From Candidatus Babeliales bacterium (GTDB lineage: Bacteria; Babelota; Babeliae; Babelales; JANWKD01): a stretch of DNA of 64,000 nucleotides. Below, piece by piece: positions 7,956 through 62,256 of the stretch. Below the pieces are notes generated by a model that was given only the letters and a program-made list of their open reading frames with translations, made no database searches and was not told the DNA's origin. The position numbers and the translations under genes are program-made. How positions within the stretch are numbered: the stretch's first letter is position 1; every line of letters begins with the position of its first letter. The stretch is from NCBI GenBank assembly GCA_963762115.1, contig CAVXJH010000003.1:1-64000 (forward strand), in the 5' to 3' direction.

Positions 7956-9917
7956 ATGAAAAAAATTATATATATACTTTTGGTGATTATGTTTGCGCAT
8001 TCAATGGTTTATTGCATGGATGTTGAACGTATTGAGTATAAATCGAGCGGATTGTTACTATTCTTAGATGACACTGAGCATAATGAGATAGGTGCAGTCA
8101 GTCAGTATTTACTATCGGCAATTCGACAAAAAGCTGGTCCGATAGTTGTTTCAGCTTCTTTGCTTGAAAATATTTTTTCTTTATATTATGAAGCACAAGG
8201 TGATCGAGAATCGGCCGCAGATTTATATATTAAATATGTTAAGGATGTTGAGGATCAAAGCGGAAACATAAAAAAAATAAAAATTTTTTATTTAAAAACA
8301 TTACATTTTGACCCGCGTGAATGGATATTTAAAAAAGTTAGTAATTTTTTATATCTTCTTATTCCTAAAGGATATATACAAGCTTCTTTTCCTGAAATAT
8401 GGATTGACAGAGTTGAGCGCTATGATCCAAGAAATATTTCACAAGTTGAGTTATTGCTCGGGTTAAAAGTAAATCATATGGAAACAGTTGATTTTAAAAA
8501 TATTGTTTCTATAAAAGTAACTCAAAAAGATAATTCGGATTATTTTTTAGATGATCTTTATAATGATGCTACTAAAAAAAGTTCTATTTTTTGTGTTAAA
8601 TCAGATTATAAAAGTCGAGGAGCAAGAAAAATTCCTGTATGGTCATTCTATATGCATGGTCATGGTATTATGCAATATCATAGTAGTAAGCCAGGAATAA
8701 TTGTAGGGTTATCTCATAGAGGCTTTGGAAAATTTTTGGATTTTTCAGAAAATAAAATTGTTACTAGATTGCTTATATATATTTCTTGTTATTCAGCAGG
8801 TATTAGTAATGACATTATTTTTAAAGATGCGGAATCTGGAGTACGGAAAACGTATTCGTTTGCTATAATAACGCAAGCTATTTCTGAAGTGCCAATTAGT
8901 AGTGTGCGAGCTGTGCAATGGTCGAGCGATGGTCGAGCGGAAGTAACGACATTGGCCAATTTTGCCTATTTTTTATCATTAGTTCGAAGTACAGATATTT
9001 TTGATTATATAAAGATAGCAGAATCTTTATTTCCGATTATACCTACAGTGCCATTATTTACGCAAGAACCATGGGGACATGTACCACAAATAAAATTGCC
9101 GGGAATTGAATGGTTTTCTGTGATGGCAAGTAGGCAAGATATCGTTTCGATTGGTTCAATTTTAGCAAAAACGAGAAGTCCAAATAAGCCTCTTGATATT
9201 GTTAATTTTTTTAAATCTAGAGAGGTCAGAAAGAAAGATGATCCGAATAAGAACATGCCATTTGATCCAAAAGCTATTTTGCTCTATGCATCGGTGATTC
9301 CTTTTGAGTTGATTATTAATGCTAGGAATTTGGAGGCGATTATTTCAATGATTCCTGGTGATGCTATTCATGTTATTAAAAAAATTAGTTCTTCCACAAA
9401 AACAGAACAAGAGCTTTTGCAATCTTTTATGAGTATTGCAGGTCTTGAAACTCGAAAAATATTTTTTATTGAAGAACTTAATACATTAAAAAACGTTATT
9501 ATTTATAATGTAACTGAGCCAAAAATTATTCCATTGAGTCGTCGTCGCGGGGAATATCAATTATCGTATCCTGGGATACGTTATTGTTTTGCTTTGTATG
9601 AAAAAAAGTATGAAAAAAATAATATTTTGTATAAAAAAGAAGCAAAGTCTGAAGAGCATGTTGTGCGTGATGCGTCATTTATAAAGGGATATGCTGATTT
9701 ATTGGCAGAAGCGCGTGCATTTAAGGATGAGCCATCATTGCTTAGTAGAGAAAATTTAGAAAAAATGAGCGCAACATTGGCAATCACGCATGAAATAAGA
9801 AAGAAAGCAAAACTTATAAAAAAACAACAAAAGAGTAATGCTTTACAGAAATCATTAGAAGAATTGCAGCAGAAATTAATAGAATTACATGCTAAGCTTA
9901 GTAGGCAAAAAGCCTGA
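7956..9917 (+). CDS. Secreted protein, possible clan CD (caspase/haemoglobinase-fold) cysteine peptidase domain
   Basis: 653 aa; signal peptide ending VYC-MD; WSFYMHGHG and LLIYISCYSAG about 40 aa apart; C-terminal leucine heptad tag. Confidence 0.6.
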   Translation: MKKIIYILLVIMFAHSMVYCMDVERIEYKSSGLLLFLDDTEHNEIGAVSQYLLSAIRQKAGPIVVSASLLENIFSLYYEAQGDRESAADLYIKYVKDVEDQSGNIKKIKIFYLKTLHFDPREWIFKKVSNFLYLLIPKGYIQASFPEIWIDRVERYDPRNISQVELLLGLKVNHMETVDFKNIVSIKVTQKDNSDYFLDDLYNDATKKSSIFCVKSDYKSRGARKIPVWSFYMHGHGIMQYHSSKPGIIVGLSHRGFGKFLDFSENKIVTRLLIYISCYSAGISNDIIFKDAESGVRKTYSFAIITQAISEVPISSVRAVQWSSDGRAEVTTLANFAYFLSLVRSTDIFDYIKIAESLFPIIPTVPLFTQEPWGHVPQIKLPGIEWFSVMASRQDIVSIGSILAKTRSPNKPLDIVNFFKSREVRKKDDPNKNMPFDPKAILLYASVIPFELIINARNLEAIISMIPGDAIHVIKKISSSTKTEQELLQSFMSIAGLETRKIFFIEELNTLKNVIIYNVTEPKIIPLSRRRGEYQLSYPGIRYCFALYEKKYEKNNILYKKEAKSEEHVVRDASFIKGYADLLAEARAFKDEPSLLSRENLEKMSATLAITHEIRKKAKLIKKQQKSNALQKSLEELQQKLIELHAKLSRQKA

Positions 9918-9945
9918 TCAATTCAGACTTTTTGCATTGTTTTAA

Positions 9946-10293
9946 TTATTTGCAGCTTTTTAAGTGATTTTTTAAATCATCTAATTTTTTTTGAGTAGCA
10001 TCGATTAATTCTTGCACTTCTTTGCAACTGAGTTCTTTAGTTGTTTTTTTGCAATGGCCTGCTTCTAATTGCTTTTCCCAATTTGAAATCTTTTTGTTAA
10101 GTTCTTCTTTTTTTTGTAATTTTTTTTCTTTATTGGATTGTTTTGTGGTGTCAATAACAAGGTCATTGAGGAAATTACAGTTTTCCACCTCAGCTTGTTT
10201 TGGATTGGCTGCAGGTTCCGTTGCATTGAGCATGGTTATACTTGTGGTGAATGCAATAGCAGCAGAAAATAATAGTATCACTTTATTTTTCAT
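9946..10293 (-). CDS. Small secreted Lys-rich hypothetical protein
   Basis: 115 aa, signal peptide ending MLNA-TE, GGAG RBS upstream. Confidence 0.7.
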   Translation of the reverse strand: MKNKVILLFSAAIAFTTSITMLNATEPAANPKQAEVENCNFLNDLVIDTTKQSNKEKKLQKKEELNKKISNWEKQLEAGHCKKTTKELSCKEVQELIDATQKKLDDLKNHLKSCK

Positions 10294-11344: not shown

Positions 11345-11450
11345 AAAAATCCCCTTTCATTGCTTTATAAGTATTTATTCTTTTTAATTTAATAATAGCA
11401 AATATAACAGGGTAAAAGCAATGGTTTTAAAAAGACTATTTGTGGGGGGG

Positions 11451-11485: not shown

Positions 11486-11504
11486 TGGAAAATTATAAAG
11501 GTGT

Positions 11505-14834: not shown

Positions 14835-16790
14835 TTAAATATCTCTTGGTAATTTCTTGAATTCAAGTGCAACTTTTGAATAATGTGGTTTATTGCGTGT
14901 TATTGTCTTTACTGCATTTTCTAAAGTTGGCTTGAAATATTCATATAATTCTGGATTGGTTGATTGAAGTTCTTGTCCGTTTTGTGCAATGGCACATAAT
15001 CTTTTAAAAGAATCACCTTTATTCTTTTCAGAAATATCTTCATTAATATGTTGTTGCATAGTATTCAAAATTATAGTTGGAATAACTAATTCATCAGTTA
15101 TTATTTCTGGTGAAGAATCATCTTTTTTATTTTCTACTTTTTTATTTCTGCAGCATGCAAGAAGAGCAGATTTAGTATTTATTTTTAGAGCATTAAGATA
15201 TGAAAGTCCAATTAAGGAATTTTTAAGATTATTGGTGGCAAAGTTGAAAATATCAGAAATTTTTTTATTATTAAATTTTTCTGTGTAAAAAAGAATATTA
15301 AAATACCTTATATCTGAGGCTAAAAATGGATAGTTAAGCTTGTGAAGTGTGGCATGTAATTCATTAATATTGTCCGATATTAGATAATAATATGCTGAAA
15401 AAAATAACATGCGGGCAACTCTTCGTTTACTTATTTCTGACCAAATCTCGCTCATAATTCTATCGGTTGTTGAATTTTTTGGTATAGAACAAAAGGTATT
15501 TTCTTGTCCTTTGTGCAGAAATCCTTCAAATAAGTCGATGTATACTTTAAATTCTGGTAAAGAAACTTCAAGAGTAGTTTTGATTTTATCTTGTTTCAAT
15601 TGTTCTAAGTTTGTATGTAATTCTTCTAAGGAATTAACATTTAAAGATTCTTTTAATAATGCTTTAAAGTGTGATGCAATTTCAGTTACGGTATCTTTAT
15701 CAATATTGTTTTCAAGAATGCATTGTACCCTTGAGGTAACAAGTGATTTTAAACCAAGTTCTTTTTTTTGTAAGAGAAGTTTTCTTAATGTTGAAAAAAT
15801 AGTATTTGGAAGACGTTTATTGGCGTTCATAAAATTAATAAGTTCATCGATGGATTTTTGAGTATATTCGCCGGATATTTCTTGATTTATTTTTGCTTCA
15901 ATTAATTCAGAGATCATCTGATTTATTGGTGTTGATATAGAGTCAGATTCTTGTACTGTTTTATAATGTTCTGCAAGTTGGGTATAACTTTGTTTGATAA
16001 GTACATCTTGAAAAGCTGCTAAAGATTGATTTTTAAAGCGCTCCATTTCTTGTTGTTCTATAAAATCAAAGGATTGATCATTACAAATTGCTCTATAATC
16101 CATAAGAGAGTTTGTGAGATTATTTTGGGAAATAACTGCAGGAAAATATCTTAAAAGAGTAAGCACTGATTGTTTGATAATTATGTCTTTATAATAAGCA
16201 AATCTGCCGAAATTAAGAGAATTGACTTTGATGAGGTTAGTAAGATTGCTAGCATTTTTTATTAGCTGATTAAAATATATTATTTCTTGTATTGAATCAA
16301 AAAGTATAGTAGGTATTTGATTTTCAGTGGGGTAATAAGAAAGACGTCCATAAAAATATAATCCTAGGCATGATGGCGAATACTCATTAGACCAATGTTT
16401 TCTAAGTTTACAATATATAATTTCGCGAAATTGATCTGACAATTGTTCAAGGATTTCATTGATTTTTATTTCTGTTTTTTTAATCTCTTCAAATTTAGTT
16501 TGGGAAATTTCTTTATTAATTCTGTTTAGAATGATTTCTAAAAAATCTTTTACAGGATATTCTTGCGCTAATTCTTGCATTGATAAGGGTTTTTGTTCAA
16601 TCTCTAAACAAGATAAAGATCTATTATTATTAGCTTGAATAATTATTTTCAAATTCTTTATAATAGCGTCGGTTGATAATGATGAAAGACGTATGATGCT
16701 ATGTTTAAAGGAATCGAGTTCTACCCTTAAAGGGTCATCCATACCAGATGCAGAAGATATGAAAAAAAAGGATAAAAAAATTAATAACAT
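14835..16790 (-). CDS. Secreted helical hypothetical protein
   Basis: 651 aa; signal peptide ending ASG-MDD. Confidence 0.75.
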   Translation of the reverse strand: MLLIFLSFFFISSASGMDDPLRVELDSFKHSIIRLSSLSTDAIIKNLKIIIQANNNRSLSCLEIEQKPLSMQELAQEYPVKDFLEIILNRINKEISQTKFEEIKKTEIKINEILEQLSDQFREIIYCKLRKHWSNEYSPSCLGLYFYGRLSYYPTENQIPTILFDSIQEIIYFNQLIKNASNLTNLIKVNSLNFGRFAYYKDIIIKQSVLTLLRYFPAVISQNNLTNSLMDYRAICNDQSFDFIEQQEMERFKNQSLAAFQDVLIKQSYTQLAEHYKTVQESDSISTPINQMISELIEAKINQEISGEYTQKSIDELINFMNANKRLPNTIFSTLRKLLLQKKELGLKSLVTSRVQCILENNIDKDTVTEIASHFKALLKESLNVNSLEELHTNLEQLKQDKIKTTLEVSLPEFKVYIDLFEGFLHKGQENTFCSIPKNSTTDRIMSEIWSEISKRRVARMLFFSAYYYLISDNINELHATLHKLNYPFLASDIRYFNILFYTEKFNNKKISDIFNFATNNLKNSLIGLSYLNALKINTKSALLACCRNKKVENKKDDSSPEIITDELVIPTIILNTMQQHINEDISEKNKGDSFKRLCAIAQNGQELQSTNPELYEYFKPTLENAVKTITRNKPHYSKVALEFKKLPRDI

Positions 16791-16919: not shown

Positions 16920-17933
16920 TTAACTAAAAATTGGTATCGAAAAATCACTTTTGTGCAAATCATTTTCTTCTTTATCCTGTTTAATGAGAAAGGGAATGGG
17001 ATTGTTAGATTTTTTATTTCGTATTATTTCGCTTTGTTCAGGCAAAGTATATTTATTGAGAACCTCTCCTTCTGGTGTTAGAAGAAAAAGTTTTGTGCTA
17101 TCTTGTTCAACGAACAACTCATCGTTTTCAGTTATGCCAATTAAAGTGCCAAAAAGTGTTTTTGCTTTTTGGTTTTTTTGATTAAAAATGGAAATTTTTG
17201 GATAGTCAAGTTTATTGTCAGGATGTTGTAATGCAATGAATTTTGAACCAATTTTAGCATTTATTACAGGAAATCGCGTGTGCATTCTTGTATAATGCCG
17301 GCGATTACTCCAGATATTTTTCCAATGATAATTACGGCCTACTGCATCACAGCTAATAAAACTGTTTTTTCCAAATTGTATCGTTGTTATTGAATTGGTA
17401 TGAATTTTTGGCAGTTCTAATTTACACCTACCTTTTTCAAAACCAACTAATGAAAGAGTTCCATTTTCTTGACCTACTGCAAAATATTCGGAATCACTAT
17501 CAATGGCAACTGCAGTAATTTTGGTTTTAAAGCGAACTTTTTCAATACTGCCTGATTGCATGTTGATAATAAATAATTTGTTATTGGCGCTGAAAATTAC
17601 ATTGTTGCCAAGATGATTAGTTTCAAGAAATGAAAGTGATAGGTGTTTTTTGAAAAGATGAGATAAAATTGTTGCATGATTTTCGCCAATTCTTTTCTGT
17701 ACAAATTGGTATTCTGTTTGCTTGGATAAGAGTAGGACCTTTTCTAAACCAATGAGCGTAGAGCCATGAAGGCTGATGCGTCGGTCATCAACTTTGATAT
17801 TGGATGAAATGGTGGCTATGTGCTTGAAATGTAGGGTGTCTTTTTTGTCAGCATCTATTTTATCGCCATTCATTGCGTGAGTTAATGATGAACAATATAT
17901 AATACTACCTATGAGTGCAAAGCGAATATTCAT
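16920..17933 (-). CDS. Secreted WD40/beta-propeller protein
   Basis: Signal peptide ending THA-MN; ITAVAIDSDSEYFAVGQENGTLSLV and HTNSITTIQF..FISCD WD-type blades. Confidence 0.75.
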   Translation of the reverse strand: MNIRFALIGSIIYCSSLTHAMNGDKIDADKKDTLHFKHIATISSNIKVDDRRISLHGSTLIGLEKVLLLSKQTEYQFVQKRIGENHATILSHLFKKHLSLSFLETNHLGNNVIFSANNKLFIINMQSGSIEKVRFKTKITAVAIDSDSEYFAVGQENGTLSLVGFEKGRCKLELPKIHTNSITTIQFGKNSFISCDAVGRNYHWKNIWSNRRHYTRMHTRFPVINAKIGSKFIALQHPDNKLDYPKISIFNQKNQKAKTLFGTLIGITENDELFVEQDSTKLFLLTPEGEVLNKYTLPEQSEIIRNKKSNNPIPFLIKQDKEENDLHKSDFSIPIFS

Positions 17934-20993: not shown

Positions 20994-22373
20994 TTAATTT
21001 TCTTCTTCACCAGCAAGCCATTCTTCTTCAGGTCTTAATTCTTCTTCTTCTTCACTTTGTGCTTCTAAGAATTTTTCGATAGCTGTTTTAGGAATATATG
21101 CTGAATGAGGTCTTTCTTTTGTAATGTTTTTTAGTCCGCCCAAAACTGCTGCTTGTGTTGAAGCATATTGTGTTGAAGGTTCTTTGCCTATTTCATTAAT
21201 TAATTTTTGATAATATTTTCTTAATGGGGCATTCAAAGTATTTTCAATTTCTTTTTTCTTTGCATTTAACAACTCTAAAATTTTATCCATTTTAACTAGA
21301 GAGCCATTTAAGGGATCTTCAAGTCTTTTTTTTGTATTATCGTGATATTCTTTAGCTTTATTAAGTAAATCTTTTTTTGAATAATCTTTACCAAATTTTG
21401 CTATTTGTTGGCTACTTACTATTTTGCTTGTTGGGATTATAGTTCTTTTAAGGATTTCTTCTGATATGCCTTCAGGCGCTAATTTTTTTATGTAATCATC
21501 GAGTTCTTTTTTGAATCTGCTTATTAAGCCTTTTTTAGGTTCTGATTTTCCTCTGAAGATTTCTACATCATTAATTATTGTGTTGATTAAGTTTAAATCG
21601 GTAATATCTTGGTAGGGTATTGCTAGCACAATATTTTGATCACGATTTTTTGTGGTAATATGATCAAAAAGATTGTTGCTAATTTCAATAATTTTATCGA
21701 TATGTTGTTTATCAGTTTCTTCTTTTGTTGCATAAATTCCTTGACCAGGAAATAAATAATAAGGTGCATTACCTAATTGTTTGATTTTTTTATCATAGTC
21801 TTGCCAATACGGTCTTATTGCTTGCTCTATTTGTTGATTTTTTTCATAATCAGCTTTTATATTTTCGGCTTTTATTAAGTTTATCGAAGCTTTAGAATCC
21901 CATTCTACTTCATTTTTATTATTAAATTGAATACTGTTTTTTGCTTTTTCACCTGGATAATAGATAATTTCATCTTCTGATTTCCTAGAGTTTAAAGCTT
22001 GAATAATTTTATTGAAATCTTGTTCTGTGGGATTTTCTAATCGTGGTCCATAAAGAATAAGATTGTAAAAAGGTGGTTGTGAATTATCAGATGTTAAGCC
22101 AATAAAGAAAAAGGCAAATCCAGATCCTGCATGTGGTGCATAATGTCCTGTTTCATATTTGACAAATTCTGGTGCAGCATCAGAGCGTAAAAATTTTTTT
22201 TGTGAAGGTGTTGTAGCTGGAACCGAAGATTGTTGAAGTTTGTTTGAAAGTGTTTGCAATGAAACAGTAAGATCTCGCAATTTTTTTTGTAATTGCTGCA
22301 TGCCGTGTAAACTAGCTGTTGCAAATGTACTGTACATGATGAATATGAAAAAAAAATTATGTACTTGCTTCAT
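20994..22373 (-). CDS. Secreted hypothetical protein with N-terminal leucine heptad tag and acidic tail
   Basis: 459 aa; AAGGAG RBS; signal peptide ending LHG-MQ. Confidence 0.8.
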   Translation of the reverse strand: MKQVHNFFFIFIMYSTFATASLHGMQQLQKKLRDLTVSLQTLSNKLQQSSVPATTPSQKKFLRSDAAPEFVKYETGHYAPHAGSGFAFFFIGLTSDNSQPPFYNLILYGPRLENPTEQDFNKIIQALNSRKSEDEIIYYPGEKAKNSIQFNNKNEVEWDSKASINLIKAENIKADYEKNQQIEQAIRPYWQDYDKKIKQLGNAPYYLFPGQGIYATKEETDKQHIDKIIEISNNLFDHITTKNRDQNIVLAIPYQDITDLNLINTIINDVEIFRGKSEPKKGLISRFKKELDDYIKKLAPEGISEEILKRTIIPTSKIVSSQQIAKFGKDYSKKDLLNKAKEYHDNTKKRLEDPLNGSLVKMDKILELLNAKKKEIENTLNAPLRKYYQKLINEIGKEPSTQYASTQAAVLGGLKNITKERPHSAYIPKTAIEKFLEAQSEEEEELRPEEEWLAGEEEN

Positions 22374-24333: not shown

Positions 24334-24783
24334 TTAATGATCGGTAGATTTGGGCAATGCTTGTTCATTAACTTTATCTTGAATAAATTGTGTAACTCGA
24401 AGCATATTTTCAATAGTGTCATTAATACGTTGCTCTTGATGATTTTGCAATGGTAATGGTGTGCTTCGCGCTAAATCAATATTTTTCTTTGTATTAATGC
24501 ATTGTAGCACTTGTCTCCATTTGCGCTTTTCACAATCATTACTTTGTTTGATAGCTGCTTGTTGATCTATCTTGGCTTGTAGCGGGTAATATGAACTATT
24601 ATTTCTTGGTTTATAAGTGTTTACTTCATGTGGGCATTTAAAATCATCTTCATATTCATCACAATCAACTTCATCTCCTGAAAAATAATCTTCAGAATCA
24701 TTATTACTTTCTTCCATTGCATTAATTCCTGTGGAAATAAATAACAAGGCGGCAAGTAAGATATAATATTTGTTGTTTTTCAT
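24334..24783 (-). CDS. Secreted hypothetical protein with acidic N-terminus
   Basis: 149 aa; GGAG RBS; signal peptide ending INA-MEE. Confidence 0.75.
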   Translation of the reverse strand: MKNNKYYILLAALLFISTGINAMEESNNDSEDYFSGDEVDCDEYEDDFKCPHEVNTYKPRNNSSYYPLQAKIDQQAAIKQSNDCEKRKWRQVLQCINTKKNIDLARSTPLPLQNHQEQRINDTIENMLRVTQFIQDKVNEQALPKSTDH

Positions 24784-24949: not shown

Positions 24950-25141
24950 TTTCAAGTAGAATCGATTAATGCTATAAAATATGCCTCTTAATAGTATTAT
25001 TCTCTGTATTTATTATACTATAGAATAATACTATTAAAACGCATATAAATACTATAGAGGGAATATTGTGAATTTAGGGAAAAAAATAACAGTATCATTT
25101 TTTGTTGTATTATTATGCGCAATTTCTATGCATGCAATGGA
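24950..25141 (+). repeat. Promoter+RBS+signal-peptide cassette, copy 1
   Basis: About 80% identical by hand alignment to 35521-35713; similarity ends at GCAATGGA. Confidence 0.9.
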
Positions 25142-27203
25142 GCAACAAGAAAGTCGAGAATATGATTTGTTCAATAGTAAAGAGTCTGAATTAACAAAAG
25201 AATTTGTTCAAAGAAGTACAGATCAAGATGTTATTGTTGCTTTGAGTGATATGTTGGATGAAAAAATTAATGCAACATTACTTAAAGAACCACAGACCCT
25301 TCTTGATGGAATTGTTCAACTGAATCAATTATTGGGTAATTTTGAAGTTAATTTAAAAGGGAGTGATTCTTCATTATTAAGTAATGGTTTGTTGATCAAT
25401 GGCTGTGAAATACCATCATGTCCCTTATTTGTCTTTTGGATGCAAGAGGCATTGAAATTAGTTTTTGAAAATAATAAAAAAGTGAAAAGTCTTATTGCAT
25501 TTGTTGTAGAAAAATTGGCAATGAACGTTACTAAAAGTAACAAAGAAAAGTGTATACAATTATTGAACAATTATTTACCAACAGTTGCTTTGCCGCATAT
25601 AATGAGAAAATTAGAGCCAACGTATGCTTGGTCTGAGTTAACAAATAAATCGGAAGGTACCAATGAAGATATCATTATAAGTTTTAAAAAACTTATAAAC
25701 AAAAATATTAACACAATTCATCTTGAAGCGCCAAAAGGTCTTTTGGATGCTGTTGTACAGCTTAATCAGTTGTTTCGTAATCTTGAAATAAACTTGAACG
25801 AAAGTACTTTTTCGTTTCTTAGTAATGATTTATTAATAAATGGTCATGAAATCCCATCACACTCATCATCGTCTTTTTGGATTCAAGAGGCGCTTCGGCG
25901 TGTTCTTGAAAACAATAAAAAAGTAGAAAAACTTGTTGATTTTGTAATAGAAAGAATAGCGAAAAATGTTACAAGAGATAATCAAAAAAAATGTTTAGAA
26001 CTCGTTAGTAATAAGTTGCCGAGGGTAGTTGCAAAACATGTTGCAAATCGGCTTGCTCATACATATGGTTGGTATAATACAAAAGGATTACATCAAGATT
26101 GGAGAACATCTTCAACTAAGATTAGAAATCTTTTCCCCCTTGATTCTGCAAGGATTGCAGTAAAATTAGGTTTTGGTGACATTAAGATTTTTAATCTTAA
26201 AATAAGAGATTATTTAAAAAACAGAATATTAATGTTTAATAATACCATTTCTTCTTGGGCTTATAACAATAAAAATGTCATTGCAATTGGATTTAGCAAT
26301 GGACGTATAATAACATGGAATATTGATACAGATAAGCGTTTATATTTAGAGGGTGGCGATAAGACAATTATTAATCTTAATTTTTTAGATGATACTACTT
26401 TGGCATCAGGATATAAAAATTGTTTGGTCAAATTTTGGAATGCTTCCACCGGTGATTATTTAAGAACATTTGATCAGGATAGTTTTAATGCAGCGTCAAA
26501 AAGTCAATTTTTCAAATTTTATAAAAACAGTATGCAAAATGTAAGTGCTTTACAACAACTTTATTGGAATAGATTGCTAAGAAGCGATAATAATAATCAA
26601 AAAATGTTTATTTTAAATGATACACAATTTCTTTTTATAAATGATGATTTGTTAGAAATGGGTCTAATGGATCTAAGGACAGTGAAGCAATTGAGTGATT
26701 TAGAGCAAGAAAATGCTAAAAAGTTAACATCATATAAAGGTCACACAGGTAAAATTACTGATATAGCTATGTTAGATGGTTCAACTTTTGCTTCAGCATC
26801 TGAAGATAAAACAATAAAAATATGGGATCTTCAATCAGGAAAATGTAAAAAAACACTTAAGGGTCATCGTAATGAGGTAAGGGCACTTAAAGCAGTAAAT
26901 AGTACAATGCTGGTATCCTCATCATTCCATCGCTTTTCGGCTGTTTCTTTAGATCCTGCAGAGCAGTCAGTAAAAGTATGGAATGTTAATACAGGAAATT
27001 GTTTGCAGACCTTTGACGATTTTAAACAAATGTTAGGAAATATAACTCTTACTGATGATGTGTTAGTAGCTCATAATGGCAATGAAGTGAGAATTATCGA
27101 TATGCCGACTTTTGAACAAACAATTAATTTTTTGGCCAACCGGAATTCAAATAAAAAAGCATCTCAAGAAATAGGAATAAAACAAAGTTGTACAATTGGA
27201 TGA
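25068..27203 (+). CDS. Secreted WD40-repeat protein with duplicated 147-aa N-terminal domain and CaaX-like end (CTIG)
   Basis: Signal peptide ending MHA-ME; GHTGKITDIAML..FASASEDKTIKIWD and GHRNEVRAL..VKVWN canonical WD repeats. Confidence 0.88.
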   Translation: MNLGKKITVSFFVVLLCAISMHAMEQQESREYDLFNSKESELTKEFVQRSTDQDVIVALSDMLDEKINATLLKEPQTLLDGIVQLNQLLGNFEVNLKGSDSSLLSNGLLINGCEIPSCPLFVFWMQEALKLVFENNKKVKSLIAFVVEKLAMNVTKSNKEKCIQLLNNYLPTVALPHIMRKLEPTYAWSELTNKSEGTNEDIIISFKKLINKNINTIHLEAPKGLLDAVVQLNQLFRNLEINLNESTFSFLSNDLLINGHEIPSHSSSSFWIQEALRRVLENNKKVEKLVDFVIERIAKNVTRDNQKKCLELVSNKLPRVVAKHVANRLAHTYGWYNTKGLHQDWRTSSTKIRNLFPLDSARIAVKLGFGDIKIFNLKIRDYLKNRILMFNNTISSWAYNNKNVIAIGFSNGRIITWNIDTDKRLYLEGGDKTIINLNFLDDTTLASGYKNCLVKFWNASTGDYLRTFDQDSFNAASKSQFFKFYKNSMQNVSALQQLYWNRLLRSDNNNQKMFILNDTQFLFINDDLLEMGLMDLRTVKQLSDLEQENAKKLTSYKGHTGKITDIAMLDGSTFASASEDKTIKIWDLQSGKCKKTLKGHRNEVRALKAVNSTMLVSSSFHRFSAVSLDPAEQSVKVWNVNTGNCLQTFDDFKQMLGNITLTDDVLVAHNGNEVRIIDMPTFEQTINFLANRNSNKKASQEIGIKQSCTIG

Positions 27204-32329: not shown

Positions 32330-34391
32330 TTAAAATTCAAGGTTTTTAAAACTTCGTATTTTAATTTTGGCCATCGAATTGCTCATAATTGGCAGTATTT
32401 CTTGTTGTGCGGGGTTGTGGCGCGTTTCAATAACATTTGACATGGCTGTCTTAATGCAACTTGGTAGTGCAGCATAAAGTTTATAAGATTCAGTTGGTAA
32501 TGGATTTCCTGATGGCAAAAATGAATGTATTGTTAACGGTGTTTCTCTGTTATAGCATTGTGCAATAAAAGCTGATTGATTGGCAGAAAGTTTTTTACTT
32601 TTTTTAATCACTTTTTTAGAATTTGCAAAAGGACCTATAAGTAAAATTCTGCTTGCAACAGCTTTTGCGGTATAAAGCCCATTGTTGGCATGAGCGGTTT
32701 CATAGGAAGTTTTTTTATTGACTAATGGTGGCCATGTAGGCCAATGATTAACATTATCAGAGGAAGTGCAATTAAAAATCTCTGTGGAAGTTTCTTGATT
32801 ATGAAGAATAATATGAGGTTTTTGTTTTTTATTGGAAACGAGCATGCCCGACGAGTAGCCCATTTGTGGTAATATATAGATAAAAAAATTTCTTTTTTCT
32901 AGGTCGAAAACATGCATTTCTTGATCAGAACTAGTGACTGGTGTGCCATCAAAAGAGAATTCAAAATTACCGGGGAATTCAGTTGGGAAAGGAATTTTGC
33001 ATGTAAGGGTATATCTTTGATGAGAATTAGTATCTTCTTGAAGATTCCAAAGTTCAATTGTTGCATTGGCATAGTCCCTCCAAGTTTTTTCATCGTGTGA
33101 AATTACAAGAAGATCTTTTGTATGGGGAGTGAAATTAAAATCAATAATAGCTTGTTCACTGGTAATACAATATTTTTTACCAGTTTTGGTATTCATAAGA
33201 GCAATTTCATGAGGGCTGTCAGTAAAATAGGCGAATGTTTTTCCATCAGGAGAAAAACCAAACCGTTTTTTCTTGCTTATAGAGTATCGATAATGAGTTG
33301 CCAATTTTCTTGAAAAATTCTTTAGATCGCTCAAAAAAATTTTCGTTTCTCCGTGATCATTCATAAAGGCTGCAAGCATAGTCCCATCATGATTCATTAT
33401 GGGTTTCCAAAAATGTCCATCAACTCTTTTTAATGGTGTATTTTGAGTTACTTTCCCTATATCAAGGGGATATTCTGTTGAAAAATAATGTATTACTTCA
33501 TCGCCCAGGGCAAATGTAGACTCATCATCGCTCATGCAAAAGAATGTTGAAATTGAATCTGAAAAACATGAGTCGGAATTATAACGTGTATCAATTTCTT
33601 TTACTAACTTGGTAGTTTTAGTGTTCCATAGTTTTAATTTACCTTCTCTATCAAGCGAAATAAGATAAGAATGTTGTGGAGAAAAAGTGATTTTTTCAAA
33701 ACGTTTTTTACTATTTCTTATTAATTTTGTGATTGGTGTAGTTAATTGAGTAATGGGTGAAGCTTTTTCATGAGAACGATTTAGAATGCTTGAGCTTATT
33801 AACGCATCTATTTCTTTAGGAAGTTGTGCATGAAGCGATGCCCATGATTGTTGTGTATATTCTTTTATATGTCGTTTTGCATACGCTGCTTACAGCAGCA
33901 TCTAATAATGATTTGCAAGCAAGATAGTTTGCTGCATCGAGAATTTCTATGAGTTCTTCTTGAGAGCAGGTGTTAAATTGCATAAAAAGATGATCTAAGT
34001 CTTGATATAAGGGGAGGGCTATAAGTTGAAGATATTTTTCTTCTTGTTCATTCTCTTCTTGATCATTTTTAAAAAATGCCTGAGATAAAATAGTGTAGCG
34101 GGTTATTATTGCATCATAACTTTTTAGTAGCGCGATAATTTTTTGTAAGGTCGGTGTTGAAATATTTTGTAAGCAAATTGGCTTATCGCTATTTTCTGTA
34201 AGTTTAATCATTGCATTGAGTTGTGAGCAATGGGCAATTATTTCTTGATCAACTAAAAAAACTGCCTTTTTATCGCCTGATTTCAGGCGAACTTTTTTTT
34301 TTTGTTCTTTGATGACATTTTCTTCCATTGCTTGAACAGATAAAGTATAAAAAACTAAAAGGCTAAAAAATAAAATACGATAGGTAATCAT
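32330..34391 (-). pseudogene. Frameshifted secreted Skp1/BTB + F-box-like + WD40 propeller protein (~686 aa if repaired)
   Basis: N-part: VQA-MEE, VRLKSGD..FLVDQEI, ICLQNISTPTLQKII, LIEILDAANYL. Removing one base near 33890 gives an open frame ..LPKEIDALISSSIL..FSPQHSYLISLDREGKLKLWN.. that runs into ORF 32330-33535. Confidence 0.85.
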
Positions 34392-35520: not shown

Positions 35521-35713
35521 TTTCATGTAGAATCGATTGATGCTATAAAATATGCTTGCTTGTGGTATTATTTTCTATAGCGATTACACTATAGGATAAT
35601 TTTATTAAAGCGCATATAAATAAATATAGAGGGAATTTTATGATTTTAGGGAAAATAATATTAGGACCATTTTTTGTAATTTTATTGTGCACAGCCTCTA
35701 TGTATGCAATGGA
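35521..35713 (+). repeat. Promoter+RBS+signal-peptide cassette, copy 2
   Basis: About 80% identical to 24950-25141, one 1-nt indel. Confidence 0.9.
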
Positions 35714-36158
35714 ATTGGATGATGTGAGTGTTGATAGCGATCCTATGTGGCAGCAGCAGATGCAAGATTGTGAAGAGAAAGGAAAAGAGATTACTAGAAT
35801 GCAAGAAGAACTTAGAAAAAACTATGTACAACAAAAAGAGAAAATGGCTAGAAAGCGTCAAAAAAAAATGGAAGAATTTGACAGAAGAATGCAAGAGGAA
35901 AATGAGAGGCATGATCAGTGGAAGAGAGAGATGGCTGAGGAAGAGTTATCTATTGTAAGAGTGTTAGATGACATAAGAAAAGAGTCGAATCAAAAAATTA
36001 GCTTTGTTATAAGTGAACTTATGAAAGCACATAATACATTCATGAAAGAGAAACAAATTCCCTTCAGTATACGAAAAAAGTTAGTAATTGAAAGCACAAT
36101 AGATGATATTTTAATAATGTTTAAAATGAACGAAGAAAGAATACGAAATCAAAAATAA
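35640..36158 (+). CDS. Secreted charged coiled-coil protein
   Basis: Signal peptide ending MYA-ME; E/K/R/Q/M-rich helix. Confidence 0.8.
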   Translation: MILGKIILGPFFVILLCTASMYAMELDDVSVDSDPMWQQQMQDCEEKGKEITRMQEELRKNYVQQKEKMARKRQKKMEEFDRRMQEENERHDQWKREMAEEELSIVRVLDDIRKESNQKISFVISELMKAHNTFMKEKQIPFSIRKKLVIESTIDDILIMFKMNEERIRNQK

Positions 36159-39264: not shown

Positions 39265-40503
39265 ATAAAAATAAATATTATTATTTTTGTACTTATTTTT
39301 GTTGGTGGGTTGCAATGCATGGAAGATCAAAAAGATTTTTCTTTTTTTTATGATCGTGTGGAAGATTTGGATGCTGTTGAAGCATATCCAAATTCTCCAT
39401 TTTTTGAAATGGATACAGAACAGTCAATGAATTTTCCAAGTATTCAACAAGATGAGCATAAAAATCATGTTGCACAAACACCTATAATTAATCAAAATGT
39501 ATTGTCTGAGATATCTGAACATCCCCTAAAAAAAAGAAAAGCATCTATTTTTGAATCAGAAGGAGTCCCAAGTGATTCAGTTGATGTAAATACTGTTCGT
39601 TTTACTAGAGAATCTAAAAGTCCAAAGAAAAAAATAAAAAAAACTACATTGGAGCATTTTAATGATCCAAGTATTCCCGATGATTTTAAATGTTTCGAAT
39701 GTAAAGTTGGTTATACCGCTAAAAGTGGAAAGAATTATCATTTAAAGCGAGCGCACACAATTTCTCCGAGTAATATGTGTATTGAATGTGGTTTTATAGT
39801 TAGTAAAAATCAAGAAAAAACGCATGGACGTTTTCATGATTCAATTATTTCGGATGAACTTAAATGTTTTGAATGCAAGGTTGGTTTTTTATATAAAAAT
39901 GAGATAAAACAACATTTCATGCAAAAAGTGCATAAAAATTCTAAAAGTTTTGTACCAGAAGAATTTAAAAGTTCCAATCGTCCAAAAAAAATTACCTTGG
40001 ATCGTTTTTATGATCCAAGTACCCCCGATAAATATAAATGTTTCGCATGTAAAGCTGGATTTAAAAATAAAGGTGCAATAAATTATCATTTGGTACAAGA
40101 GCACAAAACTTCTCTTAATAGTACTTGTAAAGACTGTGGTTATATAATCAGCAGAAATGAAGAAAAAGATCATGCGTTTTTTCATGATTCAACTATTTCA
40201 GATGAATTAAAATGTTTTGAATGTAAAGTTGGTTTTCTATATAAGAAAGAAATCAAAAAACATTTGGAACGATCAGTGCATCAAAGTTCTAATACCTGTT
40301 ATTGTGGTTATAAGATTATTTGGAATCGTGCAAAGATACATGAGCTTTTTCATGATTCAACTATTCCAGAGAATCTTAAATGTTTTACGTGTAAGGTTGG
40401 GTTTGAGAAACAAGCTAGAATTAACCACCATTTAATATATGTGCACAAAATTTCTCCCCATACTCCTGAAGCCATAAAATTTTTGGCACAAAAAGGTGCA
40501 TGA
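39265..40503 (+). CDS. Secreted C2H2 zinc-finger repeat protein with NLS-like motifs; apparent ATA start
   Basis: AAGGAG RBS then in-frame ATA-AAA-ATA.. (IKINIIIFVLIFVGGLQC-MED); PLKKRK and PKKKIKK; eight C-x1-2-C..H..H units. Confidence 0.85.
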   Translation: MKINIIIFVLIFVGGLQCMEDQKDFSFFYDRVEDLDAVEAYPNSPFFEMDTEQSMNFPSIQQDEHKNHVAQTPIINQNVLSEISEHPLKKRKASIFESEGVPSDSVDVNTVRFTRESKSPKKKIKKTTLEHFNDPSIPDDFKCFECKVGYTAKSGKNYHLKRAHTISPSNMCIECGFIVSKNQEKTHGRFHDSIISDELKCFECKVGFLYKNEIKQHFMQKVHKNSKSFVPEEFKSSNRPKKITLDRFYDPSTPDKYKCFACKAGFKNKGAINYHLVQEHKTSLNSTCKDCGYIISRNEEKDHAFFHDSTISDELKCFECKVGFLYKKEIKKHLERSVHQSSNTCYCGYKIIWNRAKIHELFHDSTIPENLKCFTCKVGFEKQARINHHLIYVHKISPHTPEAIKFLAQKGA

Positions 40504-44692: not shown

Positions 44693-45073
44693 ATGAAGAA
44701 AATAGTATTTTTTTTTATTATTGCAGCACCAATGATGAATAACGGTATGAAAATGAAAACGCCTCTTCGCAAGGCACATAGCGCGCCTTCTTTATTGCAA
44801 TATGGTCCATTGGTGAAACGTAAATTATCACATGAGCTTGATCCAGGGTCAGTAGCTTTGAGGATATTGTTATATGGAAGAAATTATATAAATGATCATG
44901 AATTAAATGTAGCGGCAAATCAGCTTCATTATTTGGCTGCAAAAGTGAATAATCGTCGTGATTTGCTTGAGGAAAGTAGTGCTTTTTGTTTTGTGGGTAG
45001 GATAGTGCAAGATAAAAAAAGAAAGTTGAATAAAAGAATAGCAATAGAAAAGAGTGAAAACTTGTCGACCTGA
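44693..45073 (+). CDS. Secreted basic hypothetical protein
   Basis: 126 aa; AAGGA RBS; signal peptide ending NNG-MK. Confidence 0.65.
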   Translation: MKKIVFFFIIAAPMMNNGMKMKTPLRKAHSAPSLLQYGPLVKRKLSHELDPGSVALRILLYGRNYINDHELNVAANQLHYLAAKVNNRRDLLEESSAFCFVGRIVQDKKRKLNKRIAIEKSENLST

Positions 45074-57509: not shown

Positions 57510-59825
57510 ATGGTGAATAAAAAGACAATATTTTTAGGTGTTTTTGCCGTTTTTGCAATGTTTTTACCTTTGAAGGGTATGGAAGAACGCGGCTCAAAAA
57601 GAAGCTTTGAGCAGGCAAATTCTCAAAAAGAAGAAAAATCTGAAAAGTATAAAAAAGTTAGAACAGAAGCTAATGAGCATGAAGAGTATGTTATTTTGAA
57701 AACATTTGATGGACAAGAAATTCAACTGTTAGCAAAATATGCTCGTTGCTCACAAACACTTTGTTATTATATGGATGCTCCTGAATTTAATTGTTTAGAG
57801 CCAATTTCTTTGTCATATAATTCGGCATTTACTAAAGAAAATTTAGAGTATATAAAAAAGTTATTACTATGTATTTATAACGATAATCAAGATCTTGAGA
57901 TTGATACTGAGTTATTTGTATCAATACTAAAAAGATTGCGTGCGTCTACAGAAGAAGCACAACAATTACATGATATTAATGCTTTTTTAGATTTGGATAA
58001 ACAGTTAACTCGCTTAGTTGCAAAACAAGATAAACCGCCTAAGGGACTTTTTTATTTTTTTGCTGAAGATGGGCAAAAAATAGCAATTGCTAAAGATATT
58101 TTAAAACAATATTCCTATTTTTTTAGGTTGATTAATGCTGGTATGCGAGAATCATGCTCGAAGCAACTTTATACGAATCTTCCTTATCTTGATTTGAAGC
58201 TTTTGATTACTTTATTAAATTATTTTCATTCATATAAACAAGAGATTGCATCATTATTACAAAACGTTGAGGTGAGTGAGGACAAAAAAAGAGAATTACC
58301 AGTTTGCTTGGTGAATGCTATTTGTGCAAAAGTAGAAGAATTATTTGTTGATGATAAGAATGCAATATTGGAAATTATTCAACAAGCCCACCAATGGGAA
58401 CTACATGATGTAGTTAAAGGTTTGATGAAATTTCTTTTAAAAAGGGCATTTGATGAAGACATAGGCGATTTTATGGTAAAACTTTCCCATGAGTATTGCG
58501 ATGATTTTTTTTCCTCTGAAGTAATTAATAAAAAAAATGTTGTAAATGTAGCAAGCATATTTATAAAAAAACTACATGAGCAATTATTAAAAACAGCTTC
58601 GCAAGATGAAAAAGAAACGGGTTGTGAAGTATCGGAAAGTTTTTTAAGAGACACTGCCTTTAAGGGATTAACTTTATTTGTAGATTATTTTAAAAAAGAA
58701 CCTCTAGAAATTGATGCTCTTATACATTTACTTCGCAGTGAATTAGATTTCTTTATTGATAATTATGAAAAAATTATGAGTACCTTAGAAATGTATAATA
58801 AAGATATGGTTGCACCGTTGAATGGTTTCATGAAATCTATTTTAGCTTATTCAATGCGAGGGATACATCAAGCTTTTTACACCAGTGATGGAAGACAATC
58901 GATTGTGGGATTTTTATCGGGAAATCGTTGTATTGTTGCAAATAGTCGCATGGATAATCTTTATGTTTTTAATTATCTAACACGGCAAATAGTTTTAGAA
59001 GATGTTTGCCCAAAAAATGTGCTTGGCTCTGCAACTAATGGAAAAAATGTATGTGTTCAACACAATGATGATACACTTAAAATAATAAAATTTGATGAAA
59101 ACGAATTAAAAATTTCTGATTTTGCAATGCCCGATGTACGAATAATAACAGTGTTAGATGATTATATTGTTGTACAGGATAAACCTCATAATAAGCTTTA
59201 TATTCTGGATGATGGTGGCAAAGAAAAATATTCTTTTGATTTTGATGGAAATAATAGAATTGCAGACTGTCTTTTGCTTAATGAAAATACTTTAATTTTG
59301 TTATTTGATTGTTATATTGCGCAAGTGGATTTTGAGCAAGGTAAAATTTCTATTATTTATAAAAATTTAGAAAATTGTCCGATTGTCCGCGCTGTACGCT
59401 TGAGTGAAGAAAAGTTCATTGTTGGTTATGGTAATGGAAAATTATCAATTTTTAATACTAAGGGTTTTATTGAAGATATTAAATCAAATGATGTCATCGT
59501 GGGTGCTTATAATAATAGTATGATATTATATGTCTTTTTAAATATTTTTATGAATATTGACGGTAATTTTCTTATACAAGCTGTATCGAAGGATGGTCTT
59601 AATGAAGAAGTTAGCTGTTGGGAAACAAGTTCAAGGAAGCATATAGATCAATATTCTTTTCCTAAAAAAGCTCTCTTAAAGGGGGTTCAGGGTGGCTATC
59701 TTGTATTTTTGAGAATGAGCCTTGGAGAATCTGAATGGATTATTCAATTTTCACCTTTAATTGCAACAACCCAAGAGATTGTTGAGCATTTACGAAGATG
59801 TAGTTTTAAGTTTTTATATCAATAA
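57510..59825 (+). CDS. Secreted NLS + Skp1/BTB-like (x2) + beta-propeller protein, paralogue 1
   Basis: AAGGAG RBS; signal peptide ending LKG-MEE; KRSFEQ..KYKKVR; YVILKTFDGQEIQL..ARCSQTL; AEDGQKIAIAKDILKQYSYFFRLINAGMRES; FIVGYGNGKLSIFN. Confidence 0.8.
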   Translation: MVNKKTIFLGVFAVFAMFLPLKGMEERGSKRSFEQANSQKEEKSEKYKKVRTEANEHEEYVILKTFDGQEIQLLAKYARCSQTLCYYMDAPEFNCLEPISLSYNSAFTKENLEYIKKLLLCIYNDNQDLEIDTELFVSILKRLRASTEEAQQLHDINAFLDLDKQLTRLVAKQDKPPKGLFYFFAEDGQKIAIAKDILKQYSYFFRLINAGMRESCSKQLYTNLPYLDLKLLITLLNYFHSYKQEIASLLQNVEVSEDKKRELPVCLVNAICAKVEELFVDDKNAILEIIQQAHQWELHDVVKGLMKFLLKRAFDEDIGDFMVKLSHEYCDDFFSSEVINKKNVVNVASIFIKKLHEQLLKTASQDEKETGCEVSESFLRDTAFKGLTLFVDYFKKEPLEIDALIHLLRSELDFFIDNYEKIMSTLEMYNKDMVAPLNGFMKSILAYSMRGIHQAFYTSDGRQSIVGFLSGNRCIVANSRMDNLYVFNYLTRQIVLEDVCPKNVLGSATNGKNVCVQHNDDTLKIIKFDENELKISDFAMPDVRIITVLDDYIVVQDKPHNKLYILDDGGKEKYSFDFDGNNRIADCLLLNENTLILLFDCYIAQVDFEQGKISIIYKNLENCPIVRAVRLSEEKFIVGYGNGKLSIFNTKGFIEDIKSNDVIVGAYNNSMILYVFLNIFMNIDGNFLIQAVSKDGLNEEVSCWETSSRKHIDQYSFPKKALLKGVQGGYLVFLRMSLGESEWIIQFSPLIATTQEIVEHLRRCSFKFLYQ

Positions 59826-59849
59826 AATATTGTTTATTTCAAATAGAAA

Positions 59850-59877
59850 TTGACTTTTTTGTTTTTTTCTATAGAAT
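59850..59877 (+). promoter_or_regulatory. Sigma70-type promoter (duplicated with the gene)
   Basis: TTGACT-16nt-TAGAAT within a block shared with 57422-57470. Confidence 0.65.
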
Positions 59878-59922
59878 TAGTAATATAGTTATTATTTTAC
59901 GTATTTAAAGGAGTTTTTTATA

Positions 59923-62256
59923 ATGAATAAAAAGACAATATTTTTAAGTGTTTTTGCTGTTTTTGCAGCATTATCACCCTTAAAAGCGATGGAAGAAGAT
60001 AAGCAGGGTTCAAAGAGAAGCTTTGAACAGGTAAATTCTCAAAAAGAGGAAAAGCCTAAAAAGCATAAAAAAGCTAGAACTGAAACTGGTAAGCAAGAAG
60101 AATATGTTATTTTTGCAACATCTGATGAGAAGCAGGTGAGCGTGTTAAAGAGTGTTGCTCAACTTTCACAAACACTGTGTGGTTATTTTGATGATGCTGA
60201 ATTTGATAATTCACAAGCAGTTCCTTTGTCGAGTGATGAAGCATTTACTAAGAAAAATTTAAAATGCATAAAAAAATTATTGATGTGCATTCATAACGAT
60301 AGCAAAGGTCTTGAGGTTGATGCTGAGTTACTTGGATCAATACTAAAAAGATTACGTGCGTCTACCCAAGAAGCGGAACAATTAAGTAAGATTATGAGCT
60401 TTTTAGATTTAAATAAGCAGTTAAATAATGTAATGGTAAATCAACAGAGAGTGCCTGAAAATCAGTTTTGTTTTTTTTCTCACGATAGACAGGGAATGTT
60501 GGTTAAGCAAGAAATACTATTAAGTTACCCTTATTTTCAGAGACTAGTGCAAGCTAACATGCAAGAATCGATTTCTCATAAAATAGTAACAGAATTATCA
60601 TCGGCTGATTTGCAGCTTTTGATTGCTTTATTAGAATATTCTTATCCATATCAACAACAGATGGTAGCATTTCAAGGAAAATTGAGTGATGAGATGCAAA
60701 ACAGCTTGTCAGCTGCTTTTGTAAAGGCTATTCGTGAAAAAACAGAAGAATTGTTTAAAAACGAAGAGAATTCAATAATGGATCTCATTGCGCAAGCTGA
60801 TCAATGGGACCTTCGTCCTTTAGTTAAGGGTTTGATGGCCTTTGTTGTAAATAATGCATCAGAGCAAGATGTGAGTAGTTTTATTGATGAGCTTCCTACT
60901 AGTTATAGAAAAGAGCTTTTCTCTCAAGAAGTAGTAGTTGATCAAAATAATGCGGTAATGTTATGTAGTTCATTCATCAACAGATTGAAAGCAGCATTAT
61001 TAACTGTTTCTCAAAGCGAAAAAGAATGTGAAAAAACAGAAGATTCGTTAAAAGATTTTGCTGTTGATCAACTGACTTTCTTGGTAGATTATTTTAAAAA
61101 GAATCCTCAACAAGTTGATGCTCTTGCTAAGGTGCTTTGTGATCAATTGAATTATTTTATTGATAATTATGAAGCGATTATTAATACCTTAGAAAATTTT
61201 AATAAAGATTTGATTATTCCTTTTAATGCCTTCTTGAAGGTAATGAGTGCACCGATTTTAAAAGATCTTTGGCATGCGAAGGATAACGAAGCAGAATTCC
61301 GCATTATAGGTTATTTATCGGGAAATCATTGTGTTATACATCAAAATGTTTATTCGTCAAAAGAGCCGTCTAAAAATTATATTTTAAATTATTTGACGGG
61401 AGATAAAAGAAGTTTTGATAATTTGTCTGATATGGATATCCTATCAGTAGATCAAAATGTATGTGCCCAAGGTAATAATGATAAACTTACAATCTTGCAA
61501 TGGGATGGAAAACAATTTGGTAGTCCTTTAGATATAACGCGTAGTGATGGATCAGGATTAGTAAAGGTATCAAATAATTGTATTATTATGCGCAATAGAA
61601 TTAATAATACGTTATACGTTTTAGATGATAAGGGCAAAGAAAAAGGCCGTTTTAATTTTGATGGAAATAATAATCACATCGAAAGCTGTTTTTTGCTTAA
61701 TAACAATACATTAATTGTATCATTTGTAGATTTAAATGGTTATAAGCTTGCTCAAATGAGTTTTGATTCATCTGAAATTACCGTGCTTGATGAACAACCA
61801 GCAGGGTCTAAATTTACTTTTATGACACGTTTGAATGAAGAAGAATTTGTTGTTGGCTATTGTAATGGAAAAATATCGATATTTAATAATAAAACAGGTG
61901 TGAGAACTATTCAAGAAGATGATAGTGTTACTGTCGTTGGTATGTATGATCAAATTATTAAAAAACAAATTAGCGTGTCAGCAATTTTTGCTAGTACAAA
62001 TGGTGAGTTTTTTATAACGGTCCGACAACTAGATAATTATTCTGAATATATACTTTGGGAAACAAAATCGGGTGAAAAAATTTCAACCGATAGGTTTAAC
62101 AACAAGATTTATTTAGTAGCTGTTCAAAACGGACATTATATTTTTCTACCATATAATAGCCGTGAATTATTTCATCAGTTTAATCCTTTAATTGCTACCA
62201 CGCAAGAAATTATCGACTATATGCGTAGTAATAATTTTAGGTTTTTAAATCAATAA
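59923..62256 (+). CDS. Secreted NLS + Skp1/BTB-like (x2) + beta-propeller protein, paralogue 2
   Basis: Collinear with 57510-59825 from MNKKTIFL to PLIATTQEI..F.FL.Q; KRSFEQVNSQKEEKPKKHKKAR. Confidence 0.82.
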   Translation: MNKKTIFLSVFAVFAALSPLKAMEEDKQGSKRSFEQVNSQKEEKPKKHKKARTETGKQEEYVIFATSDEKQVSVLKSVAQLSQTLCGYFDDAEFDNSQAVPLSSDEAFTKKNLKCIKKLLMCIHNDSKGLEVDAELLGSILKRLRASTQEAEQLSKIMSFLDLNKQLNNVMVNQQRVPENQFCFFSHDRQGMLVKQEILLSYPYFQRLVQANMQESISHKIVTELSSADLQLLIALLEYSYPYQQQMVAFQGKLSDEMQNSLSAAFVKAIREKTEELFKNEENSIMDLIAQADQWDLRPLVKGLMAFVVNNASEQDVSSFIDELPTSYRKELFSQEVVVDQNNAVMLCSSFINRLKAALLTVSQSEKECEKTEDSLKDFAVDQLTFLVDYFKKNPQQVDALAKVLCDQLNYFIDNYEAIINTLENFNKDLIIPFNAFLKVMSAPILKDLWHAKDNEAEFRIIGYLSGNHCVIHQNVYSSKEPSKNYILNYLTGDKRSFDNLSDMDILSVDQNVCAQGNNDKLTILQWDGKQFGSPLDITRSDGSGLVKVSNNCIIMRNRINNTLYVLDDKGKEKGRFNFDGNNNHIESCFLLNNNTLIVSFVDLNGYKLAQMSFDSSEITVLDEQPAGSKFTFMTRLNEEEFVVGYCNGKISIFNNKTGVRTIQEDDSVTVVGMYDQIIKKQISVSAIFASTNGEFFITVRQLDNYSEYILWETKSGEKISTDRFNNKIYLVAVQNGHYIFLPYNSRELFHQFNPLIATTQEIIDYMRSNNFRFLNQ

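Follow-up and report, generated by a model that had tools for sequence, protein, structure and literature searches.

The window analysed here, 64,000 nucleotides long (positions 1-64000 of contig C3), belongs to the genome of a Candidatus Babeliales bacterium (phylum Babelota, also known as TM6), called G000 below (1.53 Mb, 95% complete). Its PheS protein is 81, 64 and 62% identical to those of three Ca. Babeliales genomes, the next matches reaching at most 55%. Many exported proteins encoded in the window and in the rest of this genome share a methionine at the first position of the predicted mature protein (+1), directly behind the signal peptidase site and usually followed by Glu, Gln, Asp or Asn at +2. 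This +1 Met rule is real and genome-wide in G000, where it concerns about 220-260 proteins (16-19% of genes), and it marks proteins with eukaryote-like domains rather than those of the envelope. According to published descriptions, the Babeliales are intracellular parasites of protists in which type II secretion is the sole system detected and many ankyrin proteins bear signal peptides (PMC4378268, PMC6561590, PMC4776705).

A methionine rule behind the predicted signal peptidase site

A purpose-written gene caller found 1401 genes in G000, and a leader detector that is blind to Met retained 621 single-segment signal-peptide-like proteins, some of them false. All cleavage sites are predictions of two purpose-written scorers rather than of SignalP: a generic untrained scorer of positions -3 and -1, and a matrix trained on the Met class, both blind to +1 and +2. 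In 206 of the 621 leader proteins, the motif [AGSC]-M-[EDNQ] lies no more than 16 residues behind the hydrophobic core. The corresponding numbers are 23.6 (maximum 40 in 200 runs) when residues are shuffled within the same search window, 6 among 644 internal membrane helices and 4 among 606 search windows shifted by 40 amino acids (AA). For 179 of the 263 proteins with a small residue followed by Met, the cut chosen by the generic scorer falls immediately before the Met, while the Met-class matrix recovers 181 of 198 sites in five-fold cross-validation. These sites fit the Sec/signal peptidase I pattern, with a basic n-region, a hydrophobic core, A/G/S/C at -1 and L/A/S/I/V/T at -3.

Among well-scoring leaders, 221 of 424 have Met at +1, for a background Met frequency of 1.85%. 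The residue that follows is E in 130 cases, Q in 31, D in 18, N in 14, K and H in 7 each, and another residue in 14. The four residues that form NatB-type termini therefore occupy +2 in 193/221 proteins after Met and in 58/203 after other +1 residues. Bulky hydrophobic residues (3/221 versus 52/203 in non-Met exported proteins) and small residues (10/221 versus 64/203) are avoided at this position. Met genes are present in every 64-kb block of the genome. The 263 Met proteins fall into 194 families, 163 of which are singletons, indicating that the +1 Met is kept by selection and does not stem from one expansion. A local cluster of 12 tandem paralogues is found at C6:349268-359960; their near-identical leaders end in Ala-Met-Gln/Glu and one member has a C2H2 zinc-finger match.

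The distribution over protein classes was obtained from a Pfam scan of the first 520 AA of 544 leader proteins (the window and 60 of the 79 genome pieces), with labels assigned by hand. Met stands at +1 in 41 of 52 eukaryote-like proteins (ankyrin, WD40/propeller, DnaJ, Skp1, Sel1, zinc finger) and in 1 of 40 envelope proteins (binding proteins, DegP, SurA, TolB, penicillin-binding proteins, secretins, Bam, OmpH, thioredoxins and others), a contrast with a Fisher p of 1.5e-14 in which the counts include related proteins that are not independent. The untrained scorer gives 33/52 versus 1/39, and 1/22 for the envelope proteins with cleavable leaders. Other enzymes have a +1 Met in 6 of 68 cases. 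A Pfam label could be attached to 48 of the 205 scanned Met proteins. The only envelope exception is BamA, with Met-Gln; by eye, Met is found there in about 3 of 29 genomes and is not conserved. The sequence-only reading of the window had linked such termini to eukaryote-like domains and had named equal frequency in ordinary periplasmic proteins as evidence to the contrary; the enrichment is borne out and the frequencies are far apart.

Signal-peptide-like leaders without +1 Met also occur on enzymes that are usually cytoplasmic: glutamine synthetase (L127:11049), glucokinase (L129:10458), DNA polymerase I (L133:5019), a histone deacetylase (HDAC; L109:6003) and a MavL-like hydrolase (L110:13786).

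Relatives and an outgroup

The +1 Met is widespread in Babeliales, the acidic +2 depends on the lineage, and some families use Ser or Ala or, in small samples, follow no rule. Ankyrin proteins with leaders carry the Met in 22/28 cases in genome G079, 21/35 in G090, 8/10 in G067, 12/27 in G048 and 2/4 in G115. In G040 it is found in 1/30, with Ser in 7 and Ala in 7, often followed by Q-E, and in G041 in 5/64, with Ala in 18 and an ambiguous register. Samples from ten further families (f2, f3, f4, f5, f7, f10, f12, f13, f15 and f17) hold 0-4 ankyrin proteins each, too few to call. Random 80-kb samples give +1 Met in 7/13 leaders of G079, 7/26 of G067, 5/18 of G110, 5/22 of G090, 0/12 of G008 and 0/9 of G096, Ser in 9/20 of G040 and 6/11 of G069, and Ala in 8/12 of G041. 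Of 60 leaders in free-living control loci, one has Met, two have Ser and six have Ala. An expectation-maximization re-fit of the cleavage sites of G040 and G041 left the register unsettled. The alignment of the G041 leaders, A-[LM]-P-[AM]-A, could be cut at any of three places, which makes the Ala rule of this genome tentative. In several G000 genes and in the G041 ankyrin loci L231-L260, the leader ends in a Pro immediately ahead of the Met or Ala (x-P-M, x-P-A), which suggests that the cut follows the Pro or that an X-Pro is trimmed off later.

A similar bias appears outside the phylum. In plasmid stretches of one Holosporales species, the amoeba endosymbiont Ca. Paracaedimonas acanthamoebae (L338-L340 and L343; CP008937, CP008939), Ser occupies the predicted +1 in 22/36 and 12/14 leaders, for a local Ser frequency of 12% and a control +1 Ser of 9/130. 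A stretch of the same species dominated by conjugation-like genes, recognised by eye, has Ser in 2/12. A Rickettsia plasmid stretch yielded only 3 doubtful leaders, and an ankyrin search of plasmids returned no useful symbiont relatives.

Genes of the window

At the starts proposed from the sequence alone, all twelve open reading frames of Table 1 open with a hydrophobic leader and continue with [AGC]-Met. The accompanying claim that E, D, N or Q comes next stands for 11 of them and fails for the Met-Lys of gene 44693. The trained matrix ranks the Met site first in 12/12, a partly circular result as most of these genes were in the training set. The claim of eukaryote-like domains applies to the five with a Pfam match (two WD40, one Skp1/POZ, a weak BIR and a weak propeller), the other seven having no match at E 0.001.

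Table 1. Window genes with a predicted +1 Met (positions in the window; Met codon, position of the codon for the +1 residue)
Position	Strand	Product	Predicted mature start	Met codon	Remarks
7956..9917	+	653-AA exported protein	Met-Asp	8016	20-AA leader; no Pfam match
14835..16790	-	651-AA exported protein	Met-Asp	16742	16-AA leader; no Pfam match
16920..17933	-	337-AA WD40-type propeller protein	Met-Asn	17873	
20994..22373	-	459-AA exported protein	Met-Gln	22301	no Pfam match
24334..24783	-	149-AA acidic exported protein	Met-Glu	24717	no Pfam match
25068..27203	+	711-AA WD40 protein	Met-Glu	25137	GTG start
33816..34391	-	191-AA Skp1/POZ-like protein	Met-Glu	34328	
35640..36158	+	172-AA exported protein	Met-Glu	35709	no Pfam match
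39265..40503	+	412-AA protein	Met-Glu	39319	weak BIR-like match (E 0.001)
44693..45073	+	126-AA exported protein	Met-Lys	44747	sole +2 exception
57510..59825	+	771-AA paralogue of 59923	Met-Glu	57579	basic stretch like a nuclear localization signal (NLS) follows
59923..62256	+	777-AA protein	Met-Glu	59989	weak propeller match

The WD40 gene at 25068 is one of a 13-gene family, all of whose members have the +1 Met; a homologue search with the Skp1-like protein returned no match but itself. Gene 39265 starts at ATA behind GGAG and has no ATG, GTG or TTG; the start given by the open reading frame finder (39310) drops the leader. This reflects either non-canonical initiation or a damaged start. 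Two further frames, a propeller-like one (32330-33535, minus strand) and a NADAR one (18071-18919, minus strand), extend well upstream of their first start codon, lack a leader and may be broken or frameshifted genes. Near the contig start (253-7859) lies a fibre-like gene in pieces that ends in a C1q domain (3600-7859).

A proposed host-like N-terminus and its alternatives

We give an even chance to the reading in which the exposed Met-E/Q/D/N provides proteins delivered to the host with a host-like N-terminus that escapes N-degron degradation. Leader and Met occur above all on ankyrin, WD40, DnaJ, Skp1-type and orphan proteins. Ordinary signal peptidase is predicted to cut just before the Met, and export would then pass through a type II-like system, the sole protein-secretion machine found. 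Pfam profiles identify two secretins, GspC, two GspE-type ATPases and a PilM-like protein in G000, GspF and pseudopilins were recognised by eye, and markers of type III (PF00771) and VirB4 (PF03135) were not found in this 95% complete genome, in which type VI was not searched for. Once in the host cytosol, a signal-peptidase product whose first residue is R, K, H, L, F, W, Y, I, D, E, N or Q would carry a degron. Eukaryotic Arg/N-degrons comprise R, K, H, L, F, Y, W, I and Met-hydrophobic termini and, through modification, N, Q, D and E (PMC11441550). Met-E/D/N/Q should not act as a Met-hydrophobic degron, should be a slow substrate of Met aminopeptidase, if a substrate at all, and would be of NatB type, the Ser and Ala of other lineages being of NatA type; NatB acts on Met-D/E/N/Q and NatA on Ser/Ala-type termini, NatA to NatE working co-translationally (PMC8358657). 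An ATG once fixed would be trapped, 7 of its 9 single-base neighbours encoding destabilising residues, which can explain one residue per genome without a receptor. A study on anthrax lethal factor shows that the N-terminus made by signal peptidase sets the fate of this one bacterial toxin in the host cytosol (PMC2518864). The host-like nature of the residues used (Met-acidic, Ser, Ala), together with the avoidance of Met-hydrophobic and Met-small termini in G000, favours host survival. NLS-like motifs near the mature start (10% versus 4%, p 0.016) also count for it.

Several observations weigh against this interpretation. M, A, S, G, T and V would all evade Arg/N-degrons, yet the eukaryote-like proteins of G000 use Met almost alone. 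Eleven of these 52 proteins lack the +1 Met, including nine with true ankyrin leaders, and the residue found in its place is mostly a destabilising one (N, N, K, L, D, Q, H, E and Y; A and V once each). Many enzymes that probably act in the host (HDAC, MavL-like, phospholipases, M3 peptidases) also lack it. The presence of E/D/N/Q after the Met of ankyrin proteins depends on the lineage (G079 16/22, G090 11/21, G067 3/8, G048 1/12), and in G048 5 of 12 have a Met-bulky hydrophobic terminus. Ala is a common default +1 residue in Gram-negative bacteria, and the cleavage sites of the Ala and Ser families are ambiguous. The arrival of the Met-class proteins in the host cytosol is presumed, and acetylation of delivered, folded Met proteins specifically by host NatB is hypothetical, NatA to NatE being ribosome-bound and co-translational (PMC8358657). 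The suggestion, made from the window alone, of a host-like and protective terminus nevertheless draws support from the class enrichment and gives the best reading, a translocation tag being its main rival. Its NatB component agrees with the strong +2 preference of G000 and G079 and disagrees with G048, G067, the Ser/Ala lineages and the co-translational action of these acetyltransferases.

A possible though rather unlikely alternative, compatible with host survival, is that Met-(E/Q/D/N) chiefly serves as a sorting tag read by the type II-like machine or at a second translocation step. It would be a bacterial counterpart of the x-E/Q/D terminus of Plasmodium, the lineages having switched tag (Met, Ser, Ala) together with its reader. 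Hundreds of unrelated folds require a portable signal, and type II-like parts are present where type III and VirB4 markers are not found. In Plasmodium, a protein is exported by virtue of its mature N-terminus, whichever way this terminus was generated, and a +1 Lys or Asp blocks export (PMC10653839, PMC12483598); this precedent and the near-monopoly of one residue per genome sustain the alternative. However, BamA carries Met-Gln in G000 and, by eye, in two more of 29 genomes, which implies that Met is not sufficient for export, and 11/52 eukaryote-like proteins do without it. Every tag seen is moreover a host-compatible residue, as a free-floating tag need not be. Recognition of type II substrates usually relies on folded surfaces.

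The bacterium might also cap the new N-termini itself, although we consider this quite improbable. A membrane-anchored, periplasm-facing acetyltransferase like RimI or the N-terminal acetyltransferases (NATs), by analogy with the glutaminyl cyclase of the Bacteroidetes Q-rule, would set the +1 rule of each lineage by its specificity. The candidate is a GCN5-related N-acetyltransferase (GNAT) encoded at C6:47313-47894 (L120:9838-10416, plus strand), with a paralogue at C7:49313 and single-copy orthologues in 51 of 61 Babelota genomes. It always has an N-terminal anchor of uncleaved type, preceded in 23/25 by an excess of positive charge that predicts an outward-facing domain, and a truA-like gene, recognised by eye, adjoins it in 21/25 loci. 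Its best profile matches are NAA30, VipF, RimI and archaeal Ard1; the best NCBIfam match, rimI (TIGR01575), scores 55 bits, below the cut-off of 86.4. The structural model (pLDDT 92.6) nevertheless resembles protein, polyamine and small-molecule acetyltransferase folds alike, no acetyl-CoA transporter of family PF13000 was found, and a capping enzyme would act on envelope proteins too. No clear orthologue was found in five distant genomes. Matches are weak and generic in G041 and G115 and absent in G045 and G096, though G115 shows Met and G041 Ala. An unlikely combination of these elements is a PEXEL-like pathway (after the Plasmodium export element), in which signal peptidase would expose Met-Glu (Ser or Ala elsewhere), the acetyltransferase cap it and the type II machine read it, the Holosporales having converged on Ser. 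If true, type II secretion would have a linear signal, and this signal could be used generally to predict the effectors of uncultured protist symbionts.

We give very little credence to the Met being the leftover start codon of captured, leader-fused genes, as had been offered as an alternative from the window, or an internal start for a cytoplasmic form. Met-Glu opens 17 of 399 cytoplasmic proteins of G000 (Met-Lys 71, Met-Ile 46, Met-Asn 43) versus 130 of 221 predicted mature proteins. A thymidylate-synthase-like exported family speaks for the idea, its +1 Met falling about where leaderless homologues begin. Among the 120 matches listed of 310, 58 bear a leader; 29 of these 58 have a small residue followed by Met and 26 retain Met-E/D/N/Q, on linkers unrelated in length and sequence that place the Met 11-30 residues from the core, the other members having Ser, Val, Ala, Ile, Asn or Gln. 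Start composition and linkers therefore do not support a relic start as the reason for which the Met is kept. Some cases may have originated when an intact gene acquired a leader by fusion; retention of the Met is, as judged from these comparisons, selected. An internal start is further opposed by Shine-Dalgarno-like sites, found at 2/263 of these ATGs versus 165/263 leader starts and 5% of internal ATGs overall, and by the lack of purine bias in the Ser codons at -1. A Kozak-like or internal-start role of the ATG was rejected on the absence of AGY bias at -1 and the near absence of upstream Shine-Dalgarno sites. The excess of GGC and TGC just ahead of the ATG reflects codon-pair usage throughout the genome. 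The G000 member of the thymidylate-synthase family (L134:11233-12201; C6:311151) is conserved, leader included, across dozens of Babelota-like sequences that are 55-76% identical to it. Export of such a nucleotide enzyme is unexpected, and several database entries begin at the +1 Met and are likely mis-called.

It is just as improbable that a signal peptidase preferring Met at P1', or a dedicated paralogue, makes the bias. G000 does have two tandem signal peptidase I genes (C3:457976-459744), but these are 69% identical, and its envelope proteins show all kinds of +1 residues. A dedicated enzyme was rejected on the single signal peptidase match found in each of the strong-Met genomes G079 and G090. 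Signal peptidase I duplications recur in several families. The PF00717 match in G000 is a LexA-like gene and not a signal peptidase.

Significance

Babelota are widespread protist parasites that lack type III and IV systems and have a secretome made mostly of orphans, and their roughly 600 leader-bearing proteins had until now no known host-bound subset. One residue separates host-type from envelope proteins (79% versus 2.5%), giving about 220-260 effector candidates, some three quarters of them without a Pfam family, and the +1 Met could serve to predict effectors of such parasites. The finding of Ser in the same place in an unrelated amoeba endosymbiont suggests that hosts impose such a rule on Sec-exported effectors in general. 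Type II handling of hundreds of unrelated substrates, and the shaping of bacterial secretomes by host N-degron control, become open to testing. In practice, the leader can go unnoticed when a gene caller places the start at the +1 Met.

Comparison with known systems

No published report of a +1 Met rule was found in the open literature, the scope of our search leaving aside subscription-only papers and supplements. In two members of the same order, Babela massiliensis and Chromulinavorax destructans, the genome reports assign signal peptides to 79/126 and 78% of the ankyrin proteins and propose type II/Sec export (PMC4378268, PMC6561590); their main texts make no mention of methionine or of a rule for the residue after the cut.

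The Q-rule of Bacteroidetes is similar in that a lineage-specific residue stands right behind the signal peptidase I site of hundreds of proteins, with a link to stability (PMC5837995, PMC10653852). The Q-rule covers most substrates, whereas here the residue is Met (or Ser/Ala), host-type proteins are marked and the envelope is spared; Gln is at +1 in 7/424 leaders of G000 versus Met in 221/424. The Q-rule has an inner-membrane enzyme that modifies the new N-terminus, the predicted candidate in Babeliales being the anchored RimI/NAT-like GNAT.

N-end rule control of anthrax lethal factor likewise lets a signal-peptidase terminus decide persistence in a eukaryotic cytosol (PMC2518864). Cases of this type are single proteins, in contrast to a genome-wide rule that extends over about 200 families and recurs with Ser in an unrelated phylum. 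Listeria p60 and listeriolysin are further single-protein cases of the N-end rule in the host cytosol.

In Plasmodium, PEXEL cleavage behind a hydrophobic leader leaves hundreds of proteins bound for the host with an x-E/Q/D terminus, and the first residue matters (PMC12483598, PMC10653839). The mature termini of G000 are of this type (E 130, Q 31, D 18 of 221), with +1 fixed as Met. Unlike PEXEL, the site belongs to bacterial Sec/signal peptidase I and involves no plasmepsin V or PTEX, and its -3 to -1 consensus, [LAS]-x-[AGSC], contains no Arg and so no RxL. The Met rule works like the Q-rule and the PEXEL terminus and is a member of neither.

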